From: Thermoanaerobaculia bacterium
GTDB lineage: Bacteria > Acidobacteriota > Thermoanaerobaculia > Multivoradales > UBA5704
DNA length: 64,000 bases
Assembly (NCBI GenBank): GCA_038250865.1
Contig: JBBSBW010000008.1
Span: forward strand, 6,753-70,752
Direction of reading: 5' to 3'
Below the pieces are notes generated by a model. That model had not been told where the DNA came from and did not search any database. It worked only from the letters and a program-made list of their open reading frames with translations. The translations under genes and the position numbers were made by a program. Shown piece after piece: positions 1,432-59,020 of this stretch. Each line of letters begins with the position of its first letter. The stretch's first letter is position 1.

Positions 1432-1851
1432 ATCGAGGCCGCTATTGTAGCAGCCCTCGCGCCGGGGCTTCGGGTCGGAAGGGAGATTGGCCTGAACCCC
1501 GGCCCAATTCCACCTCACCCTGCACTCCTGCGGGCCTTTCCCTGGGACCGCCGAGCACCAGCTCGGCACTGTCGAGGCGCGGGCCGAAAGCGGTGCGCTT
1601 TAGGGCTGTTCGCGGTTCTGCCACCTCTGCATCCGGTCCCGCGAGGACTGTTAGGCTGGGCAGAAGGGATCGGCCGGAAGAAAAACGCGCGGTTCGACCG
1701 CCGGATACCGACGGGATGGAGGGGATCGCTCCTTCCGGGCTTCCTCACACCGGTCCGCGGATCGAAATGAGCCATAGGACGCACCCGAACACCCGTCCGG
1801 CCTCCGACAGGATTGGTTTCCCGATCCAGAACACCCCTCCGCCGGCGCAGA

Positions 1852-2292
1852 GGAATGTTCCTGAGGTTACACGGAACGTTCCTGGGGTTTCCAGGAATAC
1901 TCCTGAGCGCCAGCGGAATGCTCCTGAGGTTCAGCGGAAAATTCCTGAGGTCAAAAGGAATGCTCCTGAAATTCATCGGAGCATTCCAGACGTTTAGAGG
2001 AAAACTCCTGAGACGCCGCGGAATGCTCCTGTGACCCAGAGGAGTACTCCTGAGTTCAGGAGGAATGCTCCTGGTGTCCAAAGGAGTACTCCTGCCATCT
2101 GAAGGAACATTCCGGGCCTACGAAGGAATGTTCCTGAGGTCCAAAGAAAGATTCCTGAGGTTCCGAGTAAAATTCCTGAAGTACCGGGGAGCATTCCTGA
2201 AGTACCGAGGAGCATTCTTGGCGTTGGGAGAAACATTCCGTTGGTCTGGAGGAGTACTCCTGAGTTTCAGCACAGCACTCCGCGGAGTTGGG
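1852..2292. repeat. Array of 21 contiguous 21-bp tandem repeats, consensus GGAATGCTCCTGAGGTnnnnn, each with a 10-bp palindromic core GGAAnnTTCC
   Basis: Units counted directly at 1852, 1873, 1894 ... 2272 in strict 21-bp phase. Several units are perfect palindromes (GGAACGTTCC). Several overlapping ORFs cover it (plus frame gives RNxPEVx heptads, minus frame LRSIPxx), indicating it is non-coding. Confidence 0.9.
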
Positions 2293-2439
2293 GGAGTGGT
2301 GATTTCCTCCCGCTCAGCGCTTCCTCGGTCGGGCAGACCGGTGTCTGCATCGCGCGAACCGCGACGCAGAGGGGAGAGACCTGTCGTTCGGCGAAAGTGA
2401 GAGCTGGGAGAGGCGCCGGAAGAGGTGGCTCGCTCTCCC

Positions 2440-3372
2440 TCACACCTTCCGCGCCCGGGGGTGCGACTCGCGGTAGACGTTCAACAACCGGTCGATCTCG
2501 ACGTGGGTGTATTTCTGGGTCGTGGACAACGAGCTGTGCCCCAACAACTCCTGGATGGCGCGGAGGTCGGCGCCGTTTTCCAGGAGGTGGGTGGCGAAGG
2601 TGTGGCGCAGGGTGTGGGGGTGGACTCCGGCCGCGAGCGAGGCTGCCGCGACGTGGCGGTCGAGGATGCGGCGGACGGAGCGGTCGGAGAGCCTGCGGCC
2701 TTTGGAGCTTAAAAACACCGGCTCGGCTTCGGACGGGTCGACCGCGAGCCGGGCGGGGTCGGCGAGCGGTTCCCAGCGGGCGAGCCAGTCGCGGAGCGCG
2801 CTTTCTGCGGCTCGGTTGAAGGGGACCATCCGCTCTTTGTTCCCCTTGCCGATCACCCGCAGGGTGCGGGCGGAAAGATCGAGGTCGCTCCAATCGAGGC
2901 TCACCAGCTCGCCCACGCGGAGGCCGGTGGCGTAGAGCAGCTCCAGGATCGCCCGGTCGCGGTGTCCGAAGGTTTCATTGACGTCGGGGGCCGCGAGCAG
3001 GCTCTCGATCTCTCCCGGGCGCAGGTGGCGGGGGAGGGTCTTCGGTGCTTTCGGCGTGCGCACCCCTTGGGCCGGATTAGCCTTGACGATCCCCTCACGG
3101 GCCAGCCAGCGGAAGAAGCCCCGCACCGCGGCGAGCGCCCGCCCTTGGCTTCTGCGCGACAGGCCGCGCTTGGTCTGGGCGGCGAGAAACGAGCGGATCG
3201 TGAGCGGATCGATTTCGGTCGGATCGATCGTCTTCGGGTCCTTGGCGAGAAAGTCTTCGGATAGAAAAGCGAGAAAGCCGACCAGATCCCCTTCGTAGGC
3301 CCGCAGCGTGTGCGGCGAGAGCGCCCTTTCGCCGTCCAGATGTTCGAGCCAGCTTTGGATCAGGGGGCGCAT
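2440..3372 (-). CDS. xerC: Tyrosine site-specific recombinase XerC/XerD (CodV-like)
   Basis: 310 aa from ATG at 3370-3372: MRPLIQSWLEHLDGERALSPHTLRAYEGDL...LRHTFATHLLENGADLRAIQELLGHSSLSTTQKYTHV (R..HxxR..Y catalytic motifs). The upstream 165 codons of the ORF-track entry are an R/P-rich artefact. Confidence 0.85.
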   Translation of the reverse strand: MRPLIQSWLEHLDGERALSPHTLRAYEGDLVGFLAFLSEDFLAKDPKTIDPTEIDPLTIRSFLAAQTKRGLSRRSQGRALAAVRGFFRWLAREGIVKANPAQGVRTPKAPKTLPRHLRPGEIESLLAAPDVNETFGHRDRAILELLYATGLRVGELVSLDWSDLDLSARTLRVIGKGNKERMVPFNRAAESALRDWLARWEPLADPARLAVDPSEAEPVFLSSKGRRLSDRSVRRILDRHVAAASLAAGVHPHTLRHTFATHLLENGADLRAIQELLGHSSLSTTQKYTHVEIDRLLNVYRESHPRARKV

Positions 3373-5324: not shown

Positions 5325-6446
5325 TCATTCCTTCCAGGGATCGAAATCGTCCCCCGGCTCGGCCGGCTCGTCGCCGTCGGTGGCGACTCTCCAGGTCGCG
5401 CGGAATTCCGGCGCGCCGGAAAGCTCGGTCTGCATCGCCTTCTGGACGTCGCCGCCGGAGGGGGGCGCTTTGGCCCGGCGCGGCTGGTTGAGGAAGGTTT
5501 CGAGATCGAATGCGGGTTTCTGTTTACGGCTCTCGCGGACGAAGGCGAGGACCGGATCGGGCGTGAGCCACCGGCCTTCCAGATGTTCGAGCGCGTGCCA
5601 GAACCCCGGGCCGCGGGCGACCAGGTGGCCCGCTTCCGTCTCGAATCCTTCGACCTCGATCGCCGGACCGGGAAGCTGGATCTCGATCGGCGCGGGGAAC
5701 GGATCCCACACCAGGTGGGAGAGCTCATCGAGCGTGAACGCCTCCCCGTCGGCGACTTCGAGCGGCTGCCAGACCTTCTTCATCGCCGCCTGCAACGCCT
5801 CGACGAGTTGAGTTTCCTTTCCCGGGGAGAGCGGCGGCGGCTCCGGTGCCCCGTCCTGCCGGACTTGGCGAAACAACCGGCCGAAACAGGCCCAGGCGCG
5901 CCCGGGGTGCTCGTCGAGATACTTCCAGAGCGCCGAACCGGCCGAAAAGTACGCGGCGACATCGGCCGACCAGGGGCTGAAAGCGCGCTGGACCTTCTGG
6001 CGGTCGGCCCGCGTCGCCCGGTCGGCCGGTCCGGGGGCAAAGCGCAGCTCGGCGAGGCCCGAGACGATCGTGTAGGAGGCGTTAACCGGCGTCGCCGCGA
6101 ACAGCTGTCGCACTTGGTCGGTTTCGGTGAGCACGGCCCGGTGCGTGGCTTTGGCAATCGACCCGGTGAACCGTTCCTGCTCGATCTTCTCGGCGATCGG
6201 CCCCATCTCGCCGAGCCGTTCGGACCACGCGTCAGTCCCTTCCAGCAGGTCGCGCCGCACGGCGGCCAGCCGCTTCGCCACGGCGGGGTTCGAATCTTCT
6301 GCCGACGAGATCACGATCGTCCGCCCCGCGACCACCCAGCCGCCGGAGAGGAACCGCAGCGTCCAGGTCTCGCGCACCGGGCCGTCGAAACAGGCCGTAA
6401 CCAGGGCGAGTAGGGGAAGGAGCAGAAACGCGCGACGGATTCTCAT
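5325..6446 (-). CDS. Hypothetical lipoprotein (signal peptide with lipobox LVTAC)
   Basis: Internal ATG at 6444-6446 gives MRIRRAFLLLPLLALVTACFDGP. Its start overlaps the stop of the upstream amidohydrolase gene (ATGA). No recognisable catalytic motif. Confidence 0.5.
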   Translation of the reverse strand: MRIRRAFLLLPLLALVTACFDGPVRETWTLRFLSGGWVVAGRTIVISSAEDSNPAVAKRLAAVRRDLLEGTDAWSERLGEMGPIAEKIEQERFTGSIAKATHRAVLTETDQVRQLFAATPVNASYTIVSGLAELRFAPGPADRATRADRQKVQRAFSPWSADVAAYFSAGSALWKYLDEHPGRAWACFGRLFRQVRQDGAPEPPPLSPGKETQLVEALQAAMKKVWQPLEVADGEAFTLDELSHLVWDPFPAPIEIQLPGPAIEVEGFETEAGHLVARGPGFWHALEHLEGRWLTPDPVLAFVRESRKQKPAFDLETFLNQPRRAKAPPSGGDVQKAMQTELSGAPEFRATWRVATDGDEPAEPGDDFDPWKE

Positions 6447-8179
6447 GGCCTCGCTCCGGTCGGCGCGGCCGGAAGATTCCCGTAGACGATCCGCCCTTCG
6501 AACATCGTAGCCAGCACCTTCGCCTCGGAGATTTCGCTCGGCAGGATCTCGAACAGATTGCGATCGAGGACGATCAAATCGGCGAGCTTGCCCGCTTCGA
6601 GCGAGCCGCTCTCCTTCTCCTCGAAATTCGCGAACGCGCCGCCGATCGTATAGGCCGCCAGAATCGTCGGTAGATCGAGCCGCTCCTCGGGAATCCACGA
6701 GCTGGCGCACGGGGCGACGAGATCGGGATCGCAGCGGGTCACCGCGACCTCGATCGCCTGCAAAGGATCAAGTGACGAGACCGACCAGTCGCTCCCCGCC
6801 GCAAGCACCGCGCCGGAGCGAAACATCGAGCCCATGGGGTAGAGCCAACGCGAGCGCTCCGGCCCCAACTGCGGCTCGGTCAAATCGACGATGTAGGGAT
6901 CGGCGTAGGCCCAGAGCGGCTGAAAATCGGCGATCACGCCGAGCCGGCGAAAGCGCGGAATGTCCGCCGGATCGAACAGTTGGATATGCGCGAGCAGCGG
7001 TCGGGCGTCGCGCGGTCCGTTCGCCTTCCTGGCCGCTTCAAGGGCATCGAGCGCGGTCCGGATCGCCCGGTCGCCGATCGCGTGAACGTGGATCTGAAAC
7101 CCCGCGGCATCGAGCGCGATGGCGATCTGCGCGAAACGGTCGGGCGCGATTTCCAGCTCGCCGCGCCAGCCGTTCTTGCCCCGCTCACCGAGATACGGGG
7201 CGAGCAGAGCCGCGGTCCCCGCTTCGATCACCCCGTCGGCGAAGATCTTCGCGGCCGAGGCTCGGACGTGCGGCGCGGTTTTGCCCGAAGGATCGTCCCG
7301 CCGCTTCACGAACTCGGCCACCTGGGCCGTACCTTTTTCCGGATCGACGTAGTTCGCGACGACGACCCGCAGGTTCAACTCCCCCGCGGCGTCGAGCGCG
7401 CGAAACGTCGCGAGGCTCTCCGCCCCCGCTGAAGCCTCCTGAACCGAGACGATCCCGAAACCGTGAGCGCGCTCCACTCCCCGCCGCAAGCCCTCGGTGC
7501 GGTCGGCCGCCGTGGTCTCGGGCAGATGCTCGTCCACCAGATCCGCCGCAGATTCCCGGAGCGTGCCGGTCGGATTCCCCTCCGCGTCGCGCTCGATCCG
7601 CCCACGCGGAGGATCGGGGGTCTCGCGCGTGATCCCGGCGATGGCCAAAGCCTGCGAATTCACCCAGGTCGAATGCCCGTCCGCCGCCGAAAGGTAGACC
7701 GGCCGGTCGGGCACGATCTCGTCCAACTGCCGCTTATGCGGATTCGCCTGGGGAAACAGCGGCAGGTCCCAACCGCCGCCGAGGATCCAAGGCGCGTACG
7801 GTTTCGCCGCGGCGCAAGCTCTAACCCGAGCGAGAACCTCGTCGCCCGTCTTCGAGCCGTTCAGATCGCACTGCCCCAGCTCGATCCCGCCCGAAACCAG
7901 ATGCACATGCGAATCATGAAACCCCGGCAGCACGAATCGCCCGGACAGATCGACCACCCGCGTCTGCGGCCCGACAAACGGTGCAACATCCCGATCGGCG
8001 CCCACGAACACCAGCCGCGACCCGGATATCGCCACCGCCTCGGCCCACCCGCGAGAGGCGGACATCGTGTAGATCGCCCCATGGCGAAGCACCAGATCCG
8101 CGGGCTGGGCGGCTTGGGAGCGGAGCGCTACGGCGAACAGAGCTACCAGGAGTAAGACGGCGCGGCGAGCGATCGACAT
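6443..8179 (-). CDS. Secreted metal-dependent amidohydrolase (Amidohydro_3/YtcJ-like family)
   Basis: Start MSIARRAVLLLVALFAVALRSQAAQ (signal peptide). GFHDSHVHL metal-binding motif, a second HVHAIGD motif, and C-terminal AAGSDWSVSSLDP, typical of the amidohydrolase superfamily. The upstream codons of the ORF-track entry begin with GTG and are unlikely to be real. Confidence 0.75.
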   Translation of the reverse strand: MSIARRAVLLLVALFAVALRSQAAQPADLVLRHGAIYTMSASRGWAEAVAISGSRLVFVGADRDVAPFVGPQTRVVDLSGRFVLPGFHDSHVHLVSGGIELGQCDLNGSKTGDEVLARVRACAAAKPYAPWILGGGWDLPLFPQANPHKRQLDEIVPDRPVYLSAADGHSTWVNSQALAIAGITRETPDPPRGRIERDAEGNPTGTLRESAADLVDEHLPETTAADRTEGLRRGVERAHGFGIVSVQEASAGAESLATFRALDAAGELNLRVVVANYVDPEKGTAQVAEFVKRRDDPSGKTAPHVRASAAKIFADGVIEAGTAALLAPYLGERGKNGWRGELEIAPDRFAQIAIALDAAGFQIHVHAIGDRAIRTALDALEAARKANGPRDARPLLAHIQLFDPADIPRFRRLGVIADFQPLWAYADPYIVDLTEPQLGPERSRWLYPMGSMFRSGAVLAAGSDWSVSSLDPLQAIEVAVTRCDPDLVAPCASSWIPEERLDLPTILAAYTIGGAFANFEEKESGSLEAGKLADLIVLDRNLFEILPSEISEAKVLATMFEGRIVYGNLPAAPTGARP

Positions 8180-26191: not shown

Positions 26192-26397
26192 CTCGAATTC
26201 TCCTCGCTCTCTTCTATTTCAGTTCTCTGACCGCAGGTTCCGCTCCGGAGCGGCGCACAGCCAAAGTTCTAGCCCAGGCGCCGCCGCCTTCCTGACTTTG
26301 CCGCAGGGGGCTGGAAAGTTTCCGGGTCGACACAGGGCACCGCGGGTGGCAGGCACCGCTGATCTGTCTCGAAGGCGGGAAAAAGATCGAACTTTTT

Positions 26398-26650
26398 CGA
26401 AAAAAGAGTGAACTCGAACGCCTCAAAAGTGAACTCGAACGCCTCAAAAGTGAACTCGAACGCCTCAAAAGTGAACTCGAACGGTTTGCAAGCGAACTTT
26501 TTTGAAAAAAGATCGAACTTGAGCAGCCCGAGAACGTTCTCGAGGAGTTTGGAAGCGAACTTGAGCGCCCAAAAGTGAACTCGAACCGTTTGGAAGCGAA
26601 CTTGAGGCGCTCACGAGCGAACTTCAAGAGCTAAAGAGCGAACTTTTGGG
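26398..26650. repeat. 21-bp tandem repeat array: 3 perfect copies of AGTGAACTCGAACGCCTCAAA followed by about 9 degenerate copies
   Basis: Perfect units at 26398, 26419 and 26440, then degenerate GCGAACTTGAG-containing units to about 26650. In-frame it encodes SELERLK heptads broken by stops and frameshifts. It lies in the 536-bp divergent gap between the DM13 lipoprotein and vapB. Confidence 0.8.
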
Positions 26651-26727: not shown

Positions 26728-26958
26728 ATGGCCAATCTGACCGTTGCGATCGATGACGAGGTACTTCGTCGCGCCCGCGCCCGCGCCGTGGCTCAAGGGA
26801 CCTCGGTGAACGCGCTCTTGCGGAACTATCTCCAGGGCTTCGCGGGCGCACGTACCGCGCAGGAGGCGGCGATCCGATCGCTTCTCGAGCGATCCGCCCG
26901 CGCCCGAAGCAGTAGTGGAGGACGGCGGATCTCGCGCGACGAGTTGCATGAGCGTTAA
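26728..26958 (+). CDS. vapB: VapB-type antitoxin (ribbon-helix-helix)
   Basis: MANLTVAIDDEVLRRARARAVAQGTSVNALLRNYLQGF is a typical RHH antitoxin N-terminus. It overlaps the PIN toxin gene. Confidence 0.7.
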   Translation: MANLTVAIDDEVLRRARARAVAQGTSVNALLRNYLQGFAGARTAQEAAIRSLLERSARARSSSGGRRISRDELHER

Positions 26959-27376
26959 AGCCTTTCTAGACACCAACGTCTTGGTGTACCTGTTCGACGC
27001 CGGGCAGCCTGCCAAACAGGCAATCTCGCGAGAGATTCTCGAGCGCCAAGGTTTCGACCTGGAGCTTCACCTCAGCACCCAAGTTCTCCAGGAGTTCTTC
27101 GTAGCCGCGACTCGCAAGCTCAAGCCTCCACTGTCCGTGGAAGATGCCCTGGGCGCACTTGCCGATCTGGCCGAGCTACCGACCGTCCAGGTGGATTTTC
27201 CTCTGGTCGTGGCCGCCGCTCGATTGAGCCAGAAGCACCAGATTTCGTTCTGGGATGGGTTGATCCTCGAAGCGGCGGCCGGTTGCGGCTGCAGCACGGT
27301 ATTCACGGAGGACCTCCAAGATGGATGGGAGGTTCGCGGACTTCGAGTGGAGAATCCCTTCCGCGGTCTCGGATGA
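26948..27376 (+). CDS. vapC: VapC-type PIN-domain toxin
   Basis: MSVKAFLDTNVLVYLFDAGQPAK...TQVLQEFFVAATRKL...ISFWDGLILEAAAGCGCSTVFTEDLQDG: PIN motifs are present. Start taken at the internal ATG at 26948. Confidence 0.8.
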   Translation: MSVKAFLDTNVLVYLFDAGQPAKQAISREILERQGFDLELHLSTQVLQEFFVAATRKLKPPLSVEDALGALADLAELPTVQVDFPLVVAAARLSQKHQISFWDGLILEAAAGCGCSTVFTEDLQDGWEVRGLRVENPFRGLG

Positions 27377-29378: not shown

Positions 29379-30941
29379 CTACTCCGGCACCAACCCCTTA
29401 GCCCGAGCCTTCCGCTCGTAGTTGGTCTCGCGATCCAACACGTCCAGGGTCTGGAAGTACAGCGCGTCGGCTTCGGCGTGGCTGTTGGCTATTGCCGTCA
29501 CTCCCAGCTTGCCGAATTCGGAGACGGCTCCGATCAGGTGGAACAGGACTCCGGAGTCTTTGGCGTGGCTGTAGTGGAGGCGGTTCTCGGTGAGGATCTC
29601 GATCAGGTCCTCGGGGATCAGGCCGCGGTAGGCCTCGGACTGGAGGTTGTCGGTCGCGCGGTAGAACTTTTGGGCTCCGGTGGGGGAGATGAACAGGCCG
29701 CTTTCGGGGTCGAGGGTGCCGCCGGTGAGGAACTGGAGGGCGAGGAACGGGTGGGTCGTGCCGCCCATTCGTAGGTTGATTTCGAGCGCCGAGCAGTCCC
29801 AGTTGTCGGTCTGCGCGTCGCGCCAGACCAGGAAGTCGACCGCGAAGCGGCTGACCACGCCGTTTCTCGCCAGAACCTCGCCGATTTTGATCGCCTGCTC
29901 CTGGATGTAGCGCCGGTAGTCGTCGTGCGCCGGGAACTTGCAGCCGAGGAACACCTGGTTGCTCGGGCCGCCGAGGATCTGGTCGTGGGTGGAGATCGGC
30001 AGCACCTCGCCGTGCGGGCTGATCCGCAGCTGGGCGGAGGGGGACATCTTGTCCTTCCCCTCGATCCACTCCTCGACGATCCCCTGCATCCGGCGGTACT
30101 TGTCGAAATAGCTATCGACATTTTCGGAAGGGACCGAGAATTCGAGGTTCGCCAGCTCGCGCCGGACCGAGGAAAGGCCGCGATCCTCCGGGTAGCGAAA
30201 GACCGCGTTGCCTTCGCCCGAGAAGCTGTCGTTCAGCTTGACCACCGCGCGGCGAATTCCTGGCCGCTCGCGGTCGAGATCGACCAGCGCCTCGGCGACA
30301 TCCACCTCGTCGCGCAGGTCTTCTTTGCCGAAGGGCAGCGCCACGCCCGCTTCACGAAACACCTTGCGGCTGCCCGATTTCGTTCCCAAGTGGGCAAGAT
30401 CGGGGTCGGCGCCGTTCATCGGGATGCCGAGCAGCACCGCCAGGCGGCGCTCGAAGGGCGTCGAGTTGAAAACCGTGAGATAGGCGCGCGAGGAGTCTTG
30501 AATGCCCTCGCGAATCCGCTCGATCAACCGAGGACGTTCGAGAATCTTCTCGGTGAGCGAGCGGGGCGAGGCGTCATAGGCGCAGAGCAGCGTCAGGCGC
30601 GAGCGGGCGTGGCTCGCCGGGATGCCCGCGAGCAGGTGGAAGTAATAGTCCAGGATCATCGGGTGGATCGGTTCCGACGTCACATAGACCACTCGGGCCC
30701 GGGGGTTGCGCAGGCGGATCAGGAGGAACAGCAGCCGCTCTTCGTAGAAGTTCGCGCCGGCCAGTTTTTTCAGCTCGCTCTGGTCGAGCGTGAGCGACGG
30801 CACGACGACCGAGGTGTGGGGCTCCTCGTCGCGCATGGTCAGAGCTTCCCAGACCTCCAAGAGGCGAGGCTGGAGATCCCGGAACATCTCGCGTTCGAGA
30901 TCGAGGTTCAGATCGGACAGAAATGGCGGCTTTGGAATCAC
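29379..30941 (-). CDS. ATP-grasp family protein, PGM1-like peptide-ligase-related (pre-ATP-grasp plus ATP-grasp)
   Basis: 520 aa. The overall pattern VVVPS...VVYVTSEPIHP...SRKVFREAGVALP...AVVKLNDSFSGEGN...RFAVDFLVWRDAQTDNWDCSALEINLRMGGTTHPF is recalled as PGM1-type ATP-grasp ligase. The assignment is from memory, not from a search. Confidence 0.5.
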   Translation of the reverse strand: MIPKPPFLSDLNLDLEREMFRDLQPRLLEVWEALTMRDEEPHTSVVVPSLTLDQSELKKLAGANFYEERLLFLLIRLRNPRARVVYVTSEPIHPMILDYYFHLLAGIPASHARSRLTLLCAYDASPRSLTEKILERPRLIERIREGIQDSSRAYLTVFNSTPFERRLAVLLGIPMNGADPDLAHLGTKSGSRKVFREAGVALPFGKEDLRDEVDVAEALVDLDRERPGIRRAVVKLNDSFSGEGNAVFRYPEDRGLSSVRRELANLEFSVPSENVDSYFDKYRRMQGIVEEWIEGKDKMSPSAQLRISPHGEVLPISTHDQILGGPSNQVFLGCKFPAHDDYRRYIQEQAIKIGEVLARNGVVSRFAVDFLVWRDAQTDNWDCSALEINLRMGGTTHPFLALQFLTGGTLDPESGLFISPTGAQKFYRATDNLQSEAYRGLIPEDLIEILTENRLHYSHAKDSGVLFHLIGAVSEFGKLGVTAIANSHAEADALYFQTLDVLDRETNYERKARAKGLVPE

Positions 30942-58445: not shown

Positions 58446-58459
58446 GGAATCTGAATTAT

Positions 58460-58960
58460 ACGCCTGCAATCTCGCGCGCGAGCCCCGCTTGCTGGGTGCG
58501 CAGCACCGCTTCCTCGATGCACCGTGGTGCTGGACAGAGTCCCCAAAGTGGTGGGCCGAGTCCGAACACCGCTTCGCAGGTTCCCAGAAGCGGTGGGTGA
58601 AAACCCGAGACCGCTTCACGGCTGCCCGAAAGCGGCGGATGGGAAGCGGATACCAGTGGATCGCGTCAGCGCACCGGTGGCCCGGTCCCGAGAAGCGCTT
58701 CGCGGCGGGCGCAAACCGGTGCTCGGCGCCCATCCGCCGCTTCCGGCACCTTGCGTAGCGGTGCTCGGGCCCGATCCGGTGGGTTCGGGTTGCCGCTCAG
58801 CACTCTCCGCTTCCTGCCCGGCGGGTTCCGGCGCCTGCCCGGCGGGTTCCGGCACCTGCCCGGCGGATTCCGGCACCTGCCCGGCGGGTTTCGGCACCTG
58901 CCCGGCGGATTTCGGCGCCTGCCCGGCGGTTTCCGGCGCCTGCCCGGCGGGTTTGCGAAG
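58460..58960. repeat. 21-bp tandem repeat array: 7 well-conserved units CTGCCCGGCGGGTTCCGGCRC (58814-58960) continuing as degenerate ~21-bp periodic, hairpin-rich sequence back to about 58460
   Basis: Units counted at 58814, 58835, 58856, 58877, 58898, 58919 and 58940. Upstream translation shows a 7-aa periodicity of HRF/KRF/RRF and many short inverted repeats (CACCGCTTC...GAAGCGGTG). It lies between Uma2 and recX. Confidence 0.8.
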
Positions 58961-59020
58961 CGGGGAGGCGCTTGCGGGAAGCCGCGAAGTGCGTCTCGGC
59001 TGCTGCGAAGCGGTCCCCGG

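Follow-up and report, generated by a model that had tools for sequence, protein, structure and literature searches.

A 21-bp phased palindrome array between xerC and hslV, seen as a copy of a repeat family of a few Thermoanaerobaculia genomes

The DNA studied here is a stretch of 64,000 nucleotides from a Thermoanaerobaculia bacterium (contig JBBSBW010000008.1, positions 6,753 to 70,752), the whole of which we call the window. Its minus strand carries the gene order trmFO, xerC, gap, hslV, hslU, and the gap, about 1 kb between the xerC stop at 2440 and the hslV ATG at 1431, contains a tandem array of 21 units of 21 bp at 1852-2292. Both the gap and the array had been described in an earlier note made from this sequence, and both are as described, the array with an exact period and in one register. 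That note also linked the array to the heat-shock protease genes hslVU. Comparison with related genomes leads elsewhere: the array is most likely a landing pad for a small undescribed protein, not a heat-shock control element, and by sequence comparison it is a stray 'solo' member of a repeat family that only a few Thermoanaerobaculia genomes possess.

The array and its insertion into xerC-hslVU

All 21 units stand head-to-tail in register, each exactly 21 bp long, and 16 of them have a perfect GGA-N4-TCC core, every one in the same phase. By column counts A3, T8 and C9 are invariant, G1 and C10 are nearly so, and the centre reads R-Y-R-Y. The core had been given as GGAAnnTTCC; a palindrome it is, but that exact form is present in only 5 of the 21 units, and the true core is GGA-RYRY-TCC. 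The TGAGG tail reported behind the core holds for its first two letters (T11 and G12, ~70% each), the AGG part being weaker. Polarity is marked, with a core followed by TCCTG in 14 units and CAGGA before the core in one. There are 18 matches to GGARNRYTCCTGA within the array, against 2.3 expected over the whole window, while GGARYRYTCC is matched 14 times within the array and once elsewhere (1.8 expected). Single sites are not scattered through the window, so the array sites are not a dispersed regulon. GC content drops across the array from ~0.66 to ~0.52.

The array is the centre of a larger element (Table 1). An inverted repeat of 18-20 bp (ACACCACTCCGCCGG ... CCGGCGGAGTGGTGT) brackets most arrays of the family; its two arms in the window have 13 Watson-Crick pairs, and the GGAGYGGTG pseudo-unit of the right arm is the family's most widely conserved flank motif. 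The left flank of the window element is 80% identical to that of a paralogue (L059) and 85% to that of the orthologue (L050), and the right flank 81% and 92%, respectively. Terminator-like elements similar to the one in the left flank are found ~165 nt left of the array in L001 and L059.

Relatives' hslV loci, reached through HslV homologues, indicate how the gap arose. At L111/L112, where HslV is 87% identical, only 26 nt separate the stop codon of xerC from the ATG of hslV, and there is no array. The genome DASYKS01, which bears arrays elsewhere, has a 92% identical HslV, and there hslV adjoins an FAD oxidase gene across a 157-nt gap, again with no array. Relatives with 83% identical HslV have toxin-antitoxin or TPR genes at the site instead. 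The element is present in L050 (JBDTZG01), whose flanking genes are 92% identical in nucleotide sequence to those of the window, and in a third orthologue, L103, with 18 units. The arrays of L050 and the window differ by four units and are not alignable by blastn. The copy-number comparison that had been suggested thus gives 21, 17 and 18 units in three orthologues, a variable number. Absence or variability in close relatives had been named in advance as evidence against a role at hslVU, and the array is indeed absent, as far as this is testable, at 87-92% HslV identity.

Either TGCTACAAT or GCTACAAT is found 12-15 nt before the hslV ATG at all loci compared (the window, L109, L111/L112, L113 and L115). 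As this promoter-like element adjoins the ATG, the array cannot be said to lie just upstream of the hslV promoter, as had been proposed; it ends 420 bp from the ATG and ~400 bp from the promoter-like element. An empty site in a relative, together with this conserved element, indicates that the element was inserted and split an ancestral xerC-hslVU operon. Read in this way, the 1-kb gap would be annotated as an inserted repeat element and not as a heat-shock regulatory region.

Two further observations concern this gap. Across Thermoanaerobaculia relatives hslV has no Shine-Dalgarno sequence and its predicted extended -10 lies only 12 nt from the ATG, which implies that the hslVU mRNA is nearly leaderless, a predicted feature conserved across these relatives. 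The hslV-proximal part of the gap also holds a hairpin, GCCGAGC-ACCA-GCTCGGC, at 1548-1568. It recurs with a T-run in L019 (array-oriented ~1310-1345), after a gene read from sequence as catalase, and may be a separate REP-like or terminator repeat.

Table 1. Features of the xerC-hslV region, in window coordinates
Feature	Position	Strand	Remarks
Tandem array, 21 x 21-bp units	1852-2292	+	Consensus GGA-RYRY-TCC-TG-AGGTCCAGA; polar 'solo' array
Left arm of bracketing inverted repeat, CAGAACACCCCTCCGCCGGC	1827-1851	+	'a'-type pseudo-unit ACACCnnTCC, in the array's 21-nt phase
Right arm of bracketing inverted repeat, GGGGGAGTGGTGATTTC	2287-2313	+	'b'-type pseudo-unit GGAGYGGTG
Conserved left flank, ~200 nt	1650-1851	+	Alternating inverted pseudo-units in 21/42-nt phase; common to paralogous elements elsewhere
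Conserved right flank, ~85 nt	2293-2376	+	Hairpins GCAGACCGGTGTCTGC and TCGCGCGAACCGCGA; common to paralogous elements
Weak terminator-like hairpin and T-run (GCGGTCGAACCGC GCGTTTTTCT)	1679-1701	-	Within left flank; significance uncertain
Predicted extended -10 of hslV, TGCTACAAT	1444-1452	-	12 nt upstream of ATG; conserved whatever lies upstream
hslV, 180 aa	889-1431	-	Gene downstream of element
hslU	1 to ~880	-	Neighbour of hslV
xerC-type tyrosine recombinase	2440-3372	-	Gene upstream of element; 26 nt from hslV in the ancestral arrangement

A dispersed repeat family with conserved half-sites and phase

A pattern scan for three consecutive GGA-N4-TCCTG units at 21-bp spacing, run over one genome per species (185,579 species), returned 97 loci. 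Most are near-identical repeats, many of them inside long open reading frames and in unrelated taxa; matches in Streptomyces, Lachnospiraceae, Accumulibacter, cyanobacteria and others were judged unrelated on these grounds. Five metagenome-assembled genomes (MAGs) of Thermoanaerobaculia/Acidobacteriota supply 17 of the 97 loci, and 16 of these, from four MAGs, share the window consensus GGAatgtTCCTGAGGtCCAGa, with 14-27 units per array and four arrays per genome in the scan. The search of other genomes that the earlier note had called for therefore finds the same consensus several times per genome in four such MAGs. Further copies come from metagenomes and from upstream of a gene for a 124-aa protein discussed below, for an overall family of at least 23 arrays of 14-26 units in related Thermoanaerobaculia MAGs, at least 4-6 per genome, beside unrelated genes. 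A scan of JGI metagenomes with a stricter two-unit pattern gave only 8 loci, mostly from the same organisms, and the lineage would accordingly seem to be rare. By BLAST, nothing similar to the arrays was found in plasmids or phages; three pattern matches on viral contigs are unrelated near-identical repeats. No description of the array family was found in the literature, and among known repeat families CRISPR (23-50-bp repeats with unique spacers) is excluded by the 21-bp unit with its ~12 conserved and ~9 variable positions.

Array positions are syntenic between species, beside unrelated housekeeping genes. The neighbours include GNAT/M4 peptidase, M61 peptidase/PPTase, antiporter/nitrilase, FAD oxidase, catalase and metK genes, among which no functional link was found. 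The arrays lie mostly at gene 3' ends (12 of 18 flanks), several of them between convergent genes, and their orientation relative to co-directional neighbouring genes is inconsistent. Two paralogues in one genome, L050 and L059, are 79-82% identical over ~200 nt of the left flank and ~85 nt of the right, which is comparable to the range among orthologous flanks (76% to 92%); whole elements of ~0.7 kb have therefore been copied between loci.

The pattern of conservation within the units is unusually sharp. Across 448 units in 23 arrays, GGA and TCC are ~99% conserved; in a set of 319 units, G1 G2 A3 and T8 C9 C10 are 97-99% conserved and the spacer positions 45-70%. Among 65 orthologous unit pairs, positions 1-3 have 1, 3 and 1 substitutions and positions 8-10 have 0, 0 and 1, against 13-30 at each of the spacer positions 13-21. 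The two half-sites mirror each other in their base frequencies (319 units), both in the outer pair (A4 59% and G 30% versus T7 67% and C 27%) and in the inner pair (T5 52% and C 35% versus A6 49% and G 38%). This symmetry is not accompanied by Watson-Crick covariation, none of which was seen relative to shuffled expectation at pairs 4-7 or 5-6 or in any spacer register, within or between units. Pair 5-6 in fact pairs less than chance because TG/CA steps are preferred, the central step being mostly a flexible pyrimidine-purine one.

Phase is held just as strictly. For 393 perfect cores in 23 arrays the core-to-core distance is 21 (330 times), 42 (34 times), 63 (4 times) or 105 (once), without a single phase slip in 370 core-to-core intervals, and comparison of orthologues shows units gained or lost in multiples of 21/42 bp. 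Symmetry without pairing and exact two-turn spacing are together the pattern expected of a homodimer on one face of double-stranded DNA, and the pattern is unlike the product of an RNA motif or a drifting minisatellite. The extended site, (C)AGGA-RYRY-TCCT(G), is of the form 5-N4-5, the geometry of many helix-turn-helix dimer operators, such as those of the FNR and Rex types. Of the cooperative dimer or polymer on one helix face that had been postulated for the array, the two-fold symmetric one-face geometry is borne out by the mirrored half-sites and the unbroken phase; a specific tie to hslVU is not.

Several other arrays were noted beside this family. The 17th locus of the scan, L064 (DATARR010000048.1, reverse-complement 5779-6303), from a Thermoanaerobaculia MAG, DATARR01, has the variant core GGACRTGTCC in 25 units of GGAC-RY-GTCC-TGCGAGCCATG; a divergent gene for 605 aa, with an N-terminal XRE-type helix-turn-helix by sequence reading, starts 213 nt away, and the array may be coding because three frames are open. 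L107 (Ga0224523_1000826, reverse-complement 6289-6519, GC 0.38) consists of 11 near-identical GGAACGTTCCTGAAAGAGTTA units in a ~1-kb intergenic gap, with a gene read as htpG-like upstream. The run ends in GGAACGGTGAAAA, resembling the GGAGCGGTGA end of Thermoanaerobaculia arrays, a likeness that could be chance because the scan was expected to yield about one such match. Flavobacterium sp. SM2513 (NZ_CP194228.1) has two arrays, L014 and L095, of 11-12 units with a conserved GGA-N4-TCCTG core, a variable centre and one open frame per array; their spacers are mutually inverted (TGCAAAACGCA versus TGCGTTTTGCA) and L014 ends in GGAGCAGTGATACG.

Two more 21-nt-phased regions occur in the window itself. 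The 575-bp intergenic region at 58446-59020 (lag-21 identity 0.56) has alternating cores CACCGCTT and AAGCGGTG, including the perfect palindromes CACCGGTG and AAGCGCTT, pseudo-units of the same kind as those in the flanks of the xerC-hslV element, and at 58813-58953 it holds 6.7 copies of CCTGCCCGGCGGGTTCCGGCA. It ends at a perfect TATAAT, 12 nt before a minus-strand gene (start 58445) that, judged by sequence alone, would encode a Uma2-type endonuclease. The third array, at 26386-26650, is made of AGTGAACTCGAACGCCTCAAA (3.7 identical copies) and AGCGAACTTGAGCGCC units; one frame reads as SELERLK heptads, but with stops, and an extended -10, TGCTACACT, lies just downstream. Beyond it, by sequence reading, comes an operon of a vapB-like antitoxin gene (start 26728, ribbon-helix-helix type) and a PIN toxin gene (26915-27376). 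Tandem operator-like arrays upstream of genes for small DNA-binding proteins may be a habit of this lineage.

A 124-aa protein gene linked to the arrays

GGA-N4-TCC arrays of 22-26 units lie directly upstream of a gene for a 124-aa protein at 8 loci in at least four genomic contexts. The product (MGEKSYAARLDRWQ..., MGEKSYAARLDRWQSMVQNIQEV...) is helical with a basic tail and could be assigned to no family in Pfam, NCBIfam or PHROG. A set of 5.8 billion proteins contains only 19 homologues; those with a named source all come from Thermoanaerobaculia/Acidobacteriota MAGs, and two of these MAGs have two close paralogues each. Between array and gene there is a conserved extended -10, TGnTATTCT, ~50 nt before the ATG, with the last core of the array centred at about -33 relative to the -10, and the leader has a conserved hairpin in its 5' untranslated region (5'UTR) followed by a Shine-Dalgarno sequence. 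The gene-linked arrays are non-polar, TCCTG being about as frequent as CAGGA, whereas solo arrays are polar. At a site beside a MobA-like gene, three genomes (L119, L121 and L124) have both the array and the 124-aa gene.

The array changes with the protein. Upstream of a 56%-identical homologue (L122) are ten 42-nt units in which GGAGTGGTGT alternates with CAACCGGTCC, the same motif pair that forms the flanks of solo elements. A profile search of 1.84 billion representative proteins yielded 50 clusters of similar small proteins with a common C-terminal GF-NP-L-FG-(R/K)PR motif and a basic tail. One of these, P0142 (profile E = 7e-16), has 13 copies of the 20-bp CCAGGAAGTCACTTCCCAGG upstream, and another, P0145 (E = 1e-9), from an array-bearing genome, has ~10 GAGA-N5-TCTC units with a 20-bp period. 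The named members of this profile family are all from Thermoanaerobaculia/Acidobacteriota MAGs, and the two MAGs with several named members have three or four paralogues each. This co-variation of array motif with protein subtype would seem to add indirect support for cooperative binding.

An AlphaFold2 model of the 124-aa protein (pLDDT 76) consists of three long helices, a short helix and a disordered basic tail. As the model has no match in the PDB (best E-value 1.8), the protein family, together with any mode of DNA binding it may have, is previously undescribed. We also considered whether the right flank of solo elements descends from the promoter and 5'UTR of the 124-aa gene and rejected this: there is a 15-nt likeness of GTGATTTTCTCCCGC to GTGATATTCTTCCCGC, but the local alignments reach no significance (z <= 3.5) and are equalled by reverse-complement controls.

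Interpretation, rival explanations and known systems

Our preferred explanation, which as a whole we hold to be somewhat more probable than not, is that the xerC-hslV array is a solo operator-like array bound by the 124-aa protein family and inserted in xerC-hslVU. We infer that a sequence-specific, two-fold symmetric protein would bind each GGA-RYRY-TCC core as a dimer on double-stranded DNA, and that neighbouring dimers, being on the same helix face, would touch and so coat ~300-550 bp cooperatively. The best candidate for this binder is the 124-aa helical protein with its basic tail. It would regulate its own gene, at whose predicted promoter the array ends, and solo arrays would serve as extra binding platforms in trans, whether as a sink, an architectural element or a transcriptional roadblock. 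The solo arrays, the xerC-hslV copy included, would have arisen when the element was copied.

A number of points weigh against this explanation. The model of the 124-aa protein shows a three-helix bundle of generic kind in which no DNA-binding fold can be recognised. The linkage of gene and array would be explained equally well by some other factor that binds the array and regulates the gene, or by gene and array just travelling together on one mobile module. The polarity of solo arrays (TCCTG far more frequent than CAGGA) is left unexplained by pure two-fold symmetry. The window itself has a solo array and no 124-aa gene, whose presence in this organism is presumed from the close genome JBDTZG01. 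Lastly, the MobA-adjacent L106/L057 (Ga0134122/DATMZU) has a 22-unit array with no 124-aa gene within 3 kb; it may be a gene-linked array turning solo.

A broader and more tentative idea, which we consider possible but put well below the preferred explanation, is that these loci represent a chromosomal protein-DNA system, in which proteins of ~120-165 aa would recognise subtype-specific palindromes and polymerise along 10-26 two-turn-spaced sites. The proteins would have a helical body, the C-terminal GF-NP-L-FG-PR motif and the basic tail, and would form nucleoprotein filaments of ~0.3-0.5 kb at their own promoter and at several solo arrays, where the filaments could act as architectural or centromere-like anchors, transcriptional roadblocks or titration sinks. 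If these proteins do bind the arrays, they would be a new family of sequence-specific DNA-binding proteins, and their recognition code could be read from pairs of protein and array that occur in nature (GGA-N4-TCC, GGAAGT-N-ACTTCC and GAGA-N5-TCTC). The system would also offer a model for cooperative filaments on phased sites, possibly an orthogonal repressor/operator toolkit, and an entry to chromosome organisation in the poorly studied Acidobacteriota.

The rival explanations differ in what they take the array to be. The earlier note's model made it an operator or activating array for an hslVU heat-shock promoter, acting through a regulator like the heat-shock factor (HSF) or CodY. On the coding strand the array does precede hslV, and in geometry it would suit a cooperative dimer, but the 420 bp to the ATG, the TGCTACAAT element conserved with or without an array, and the lack of an array upstream of hslV in the other relatives examined all speak against it, as do the identical arrays that adjoin many unrelated genes or lie between convergent ones. 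GGAAnnTTCC, the form that matches the eukaryotic heat-shock element (nGAAnnTTCn) and recalls the B. subtilis CodY box, is limited to the few units mentioned above; the invariants of the array are GGA/TCC and not GAA/TTC, and the family is unrelated to heat-shock genes. The heat-shock-element pattern GAANNTTCNNGAA (at least three contiguous alternating nGAAn pentamers) has no match in the array, which lacks contiguous inverted pentamer trimers, and its single match in the window, at 30537, is at chance level; the 15-bp CodY motif AATTTTCWGAAAATT is absent from the window even when 3 mismatches are tolerated. HSF is eukaryotic, and CodY is not known outside Firmicutes. The array is not part of heat-shock control, both resemblances are coincidental, and the comparative data already largely refute the model, which we regard as very improbable. 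Still less probable is a coding array, a heptapeptide repeat or its pseudogene reading L-x-L-R-[NS]-[IVTA]-P on the minus strand or N-[VA]-P-E-x-x-R on the plus strand. Twenty-one nucleotides are seven codons, five of the six frames are open in the consensus unit, a minus-strand frame with high GC content at third codon positions is open across 6 of 17 arrays, and the RYRY centre could encode [NS][IVTA]. Yet no frame of the window array is free of stops, and in several others (e.g., L025 and L077) each of the six frames contains 2-8. In the 65 orthologous unit pairs, substitutions number 106, 90 and 107 by position modulo 3, with no third-position excess, and in the best frame the would-be synonymous third positions (3, 9 and 12) are among the most conserved; neither a conserved start codon, nor a Shine-Dalgarno, nor protein-like flanking sequence is seen. 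The earlier note's view of the array as non-coding is thereby upheld. An RNA is unlikely too, if less so: the transcribed array would be a structured non-coding RNA or a protein sponge, its minus-strand unit UCAGGA-RYRY-UCC recalling the CAGGA repeats of CsrB/RsmZ, which titrate CsrA. Like those sponges, the arrays offer one GGA per unit, ~20 per element, in several paralogous copies per genome with fast evolution outside the motif; the bracketing inverted repeat could form a closing helix, and a weak minus-strand hairpin with a T-run lies ~165 nt beyond the array in the window, L001 and L059. Both strands also fold better than shuffled sequence (z ~-6), but this is uninformative, since palindromic cores make both strands fold well. 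The GGA of the arrays is not in hairpin loops, the motif is two-fold symmetric, and the exact 21-nt spacing, in place of the irregular spacing of the sponges, is left unexplained along with the mirror-symmetric frequencies. Neither strand matches an Rfam family at E <= 1, and there is no covariation for hairpins within or between units, no strand favoured by the G-U versus A-C counts in the bracket, and no convincing consensus structure from RNAalifold on the flanks. A search for sigma-70-like promoters gave none, the inconsistent orientation towards co-directional neighbours carries no strand signal, and the predicted promoter of gene-linked arrays sits between array and gene. Terminator-like signals are weak and on both strands, the dedicated scan being noisy, and tblastn found no csrA in the array-locus DNA examined, which is weak evidence.

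More probable than any of these, while still unlikely as a full account, is an interspersed repeat, selfish or neutral and comparable to BOX, REP/BIME or MITE; on this view a ~0.7-kb module would copy itself between intergenic sites. Its core would be kept for its own propagation, as the recognition site of a mobiliser, or by unit turnover, and it would have no host function at xerC-hslV. Among modular interspersed repeats are pneumococcal BOX (boxA-boxB(n)-boxC), REP/BIME clusters and mycobacterial MIRUs, and the likeness is real: these too are multi-copy, intergenic, often at gene 3' ends, lineage-specific and copied between loci, with conserved, partly complementary flank modules around a variable number of tandem units. 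The element at xerC-hslV is present only in a sublineage and an empty site exists; same-genome paralogous flanks are as close as some orthologous ones, implying inter-locus copying; and the gain and loss of units in multiples of 21/42 bp, the bracketed modular build and the preference for 3' ends all fit. What this account does not readily explain is why the spacers diverge freely while six positions and the phase hold across species, unlike the outcome of drift or homogenisation alone. The syntenic positions across species tell against it as well, as do the lack of terminal inverted repeats at the outer boundaries, of target-site duplication and of a transposase nearby, and the absence of anything similar from plasmids and phages. 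The arrays have no sequence similarity to BOX, REP or MIRU. The compensatory hairpin that marks REP/BIME is not seen, the six invariant bases having no compensatory changes and the Watson-Crick fraction of core pairs and spacer being at or below shuffled expectation. The exact 21-bp phase also differs from BOX and REP, and there is a dedicated small protein gene instead of a RAYT transposase; no RAYT (Y1 transposase) was found in the array flanks examined. The selfish account is partly compatible with the protein-bound solo array that we prefer, since the site that is recognised may at the same time be an array to which protein binds, and an origin that is largely selfish is possible.

The closest analogy for such a protein-bound array lies in plasmid centromere and iteron arrays with small repressors. 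We compared type Ib (parH/ParG and pSM19035 parS/omega), type II (parC/ParR) and type III (tubC/TubR) systems, in which a small protein represses its own promoter and binds cooperatively to tandem short repeats situated immediately before its gene. An array at the predicted promoter of the 124-aa gene is likewise what the gene-linked members have, at 8 loci, the window copy being solo. There are differences: the arrays described here sit on the chromosome, at many places and with at least 4-6 in each genome; they are much longer, with 14-26 palindromic units at a 20-21-bp period in place of 7-12-bp iterons; and the 124-aa protein, which has no detectable homology, is modelled as a helical bundle with a basic tail, not as a ribbon-helix-helix or winged helix-turn-helix. 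No partition NTPase (ParA, ParM or TubZ) was called beside the 124-aa gene, whose neighbours vary from locus to locus and encode an ABC2 membrane protein, Uma2, BNR and hypothetical proteins. Because of this, and of the different protein fold, we speak of analogy and not of membership. The nearest case is pSM19035, in which omega binds every one of several separate arrays (of 9, 7 and 10 iterons) at different promoters, in a complex that coats only the array (PMC5016525). Here, similarly, arrays abut the predicted promoter of the 124-aa gene, further arrays are found at other places, and proteins of different subtypes are accompanied by different repeat sequences. If the protein binding proposed above is real, the system would be a rare chromosomal, multi-locus analogue of the plasmid centromere and iteron arrays.

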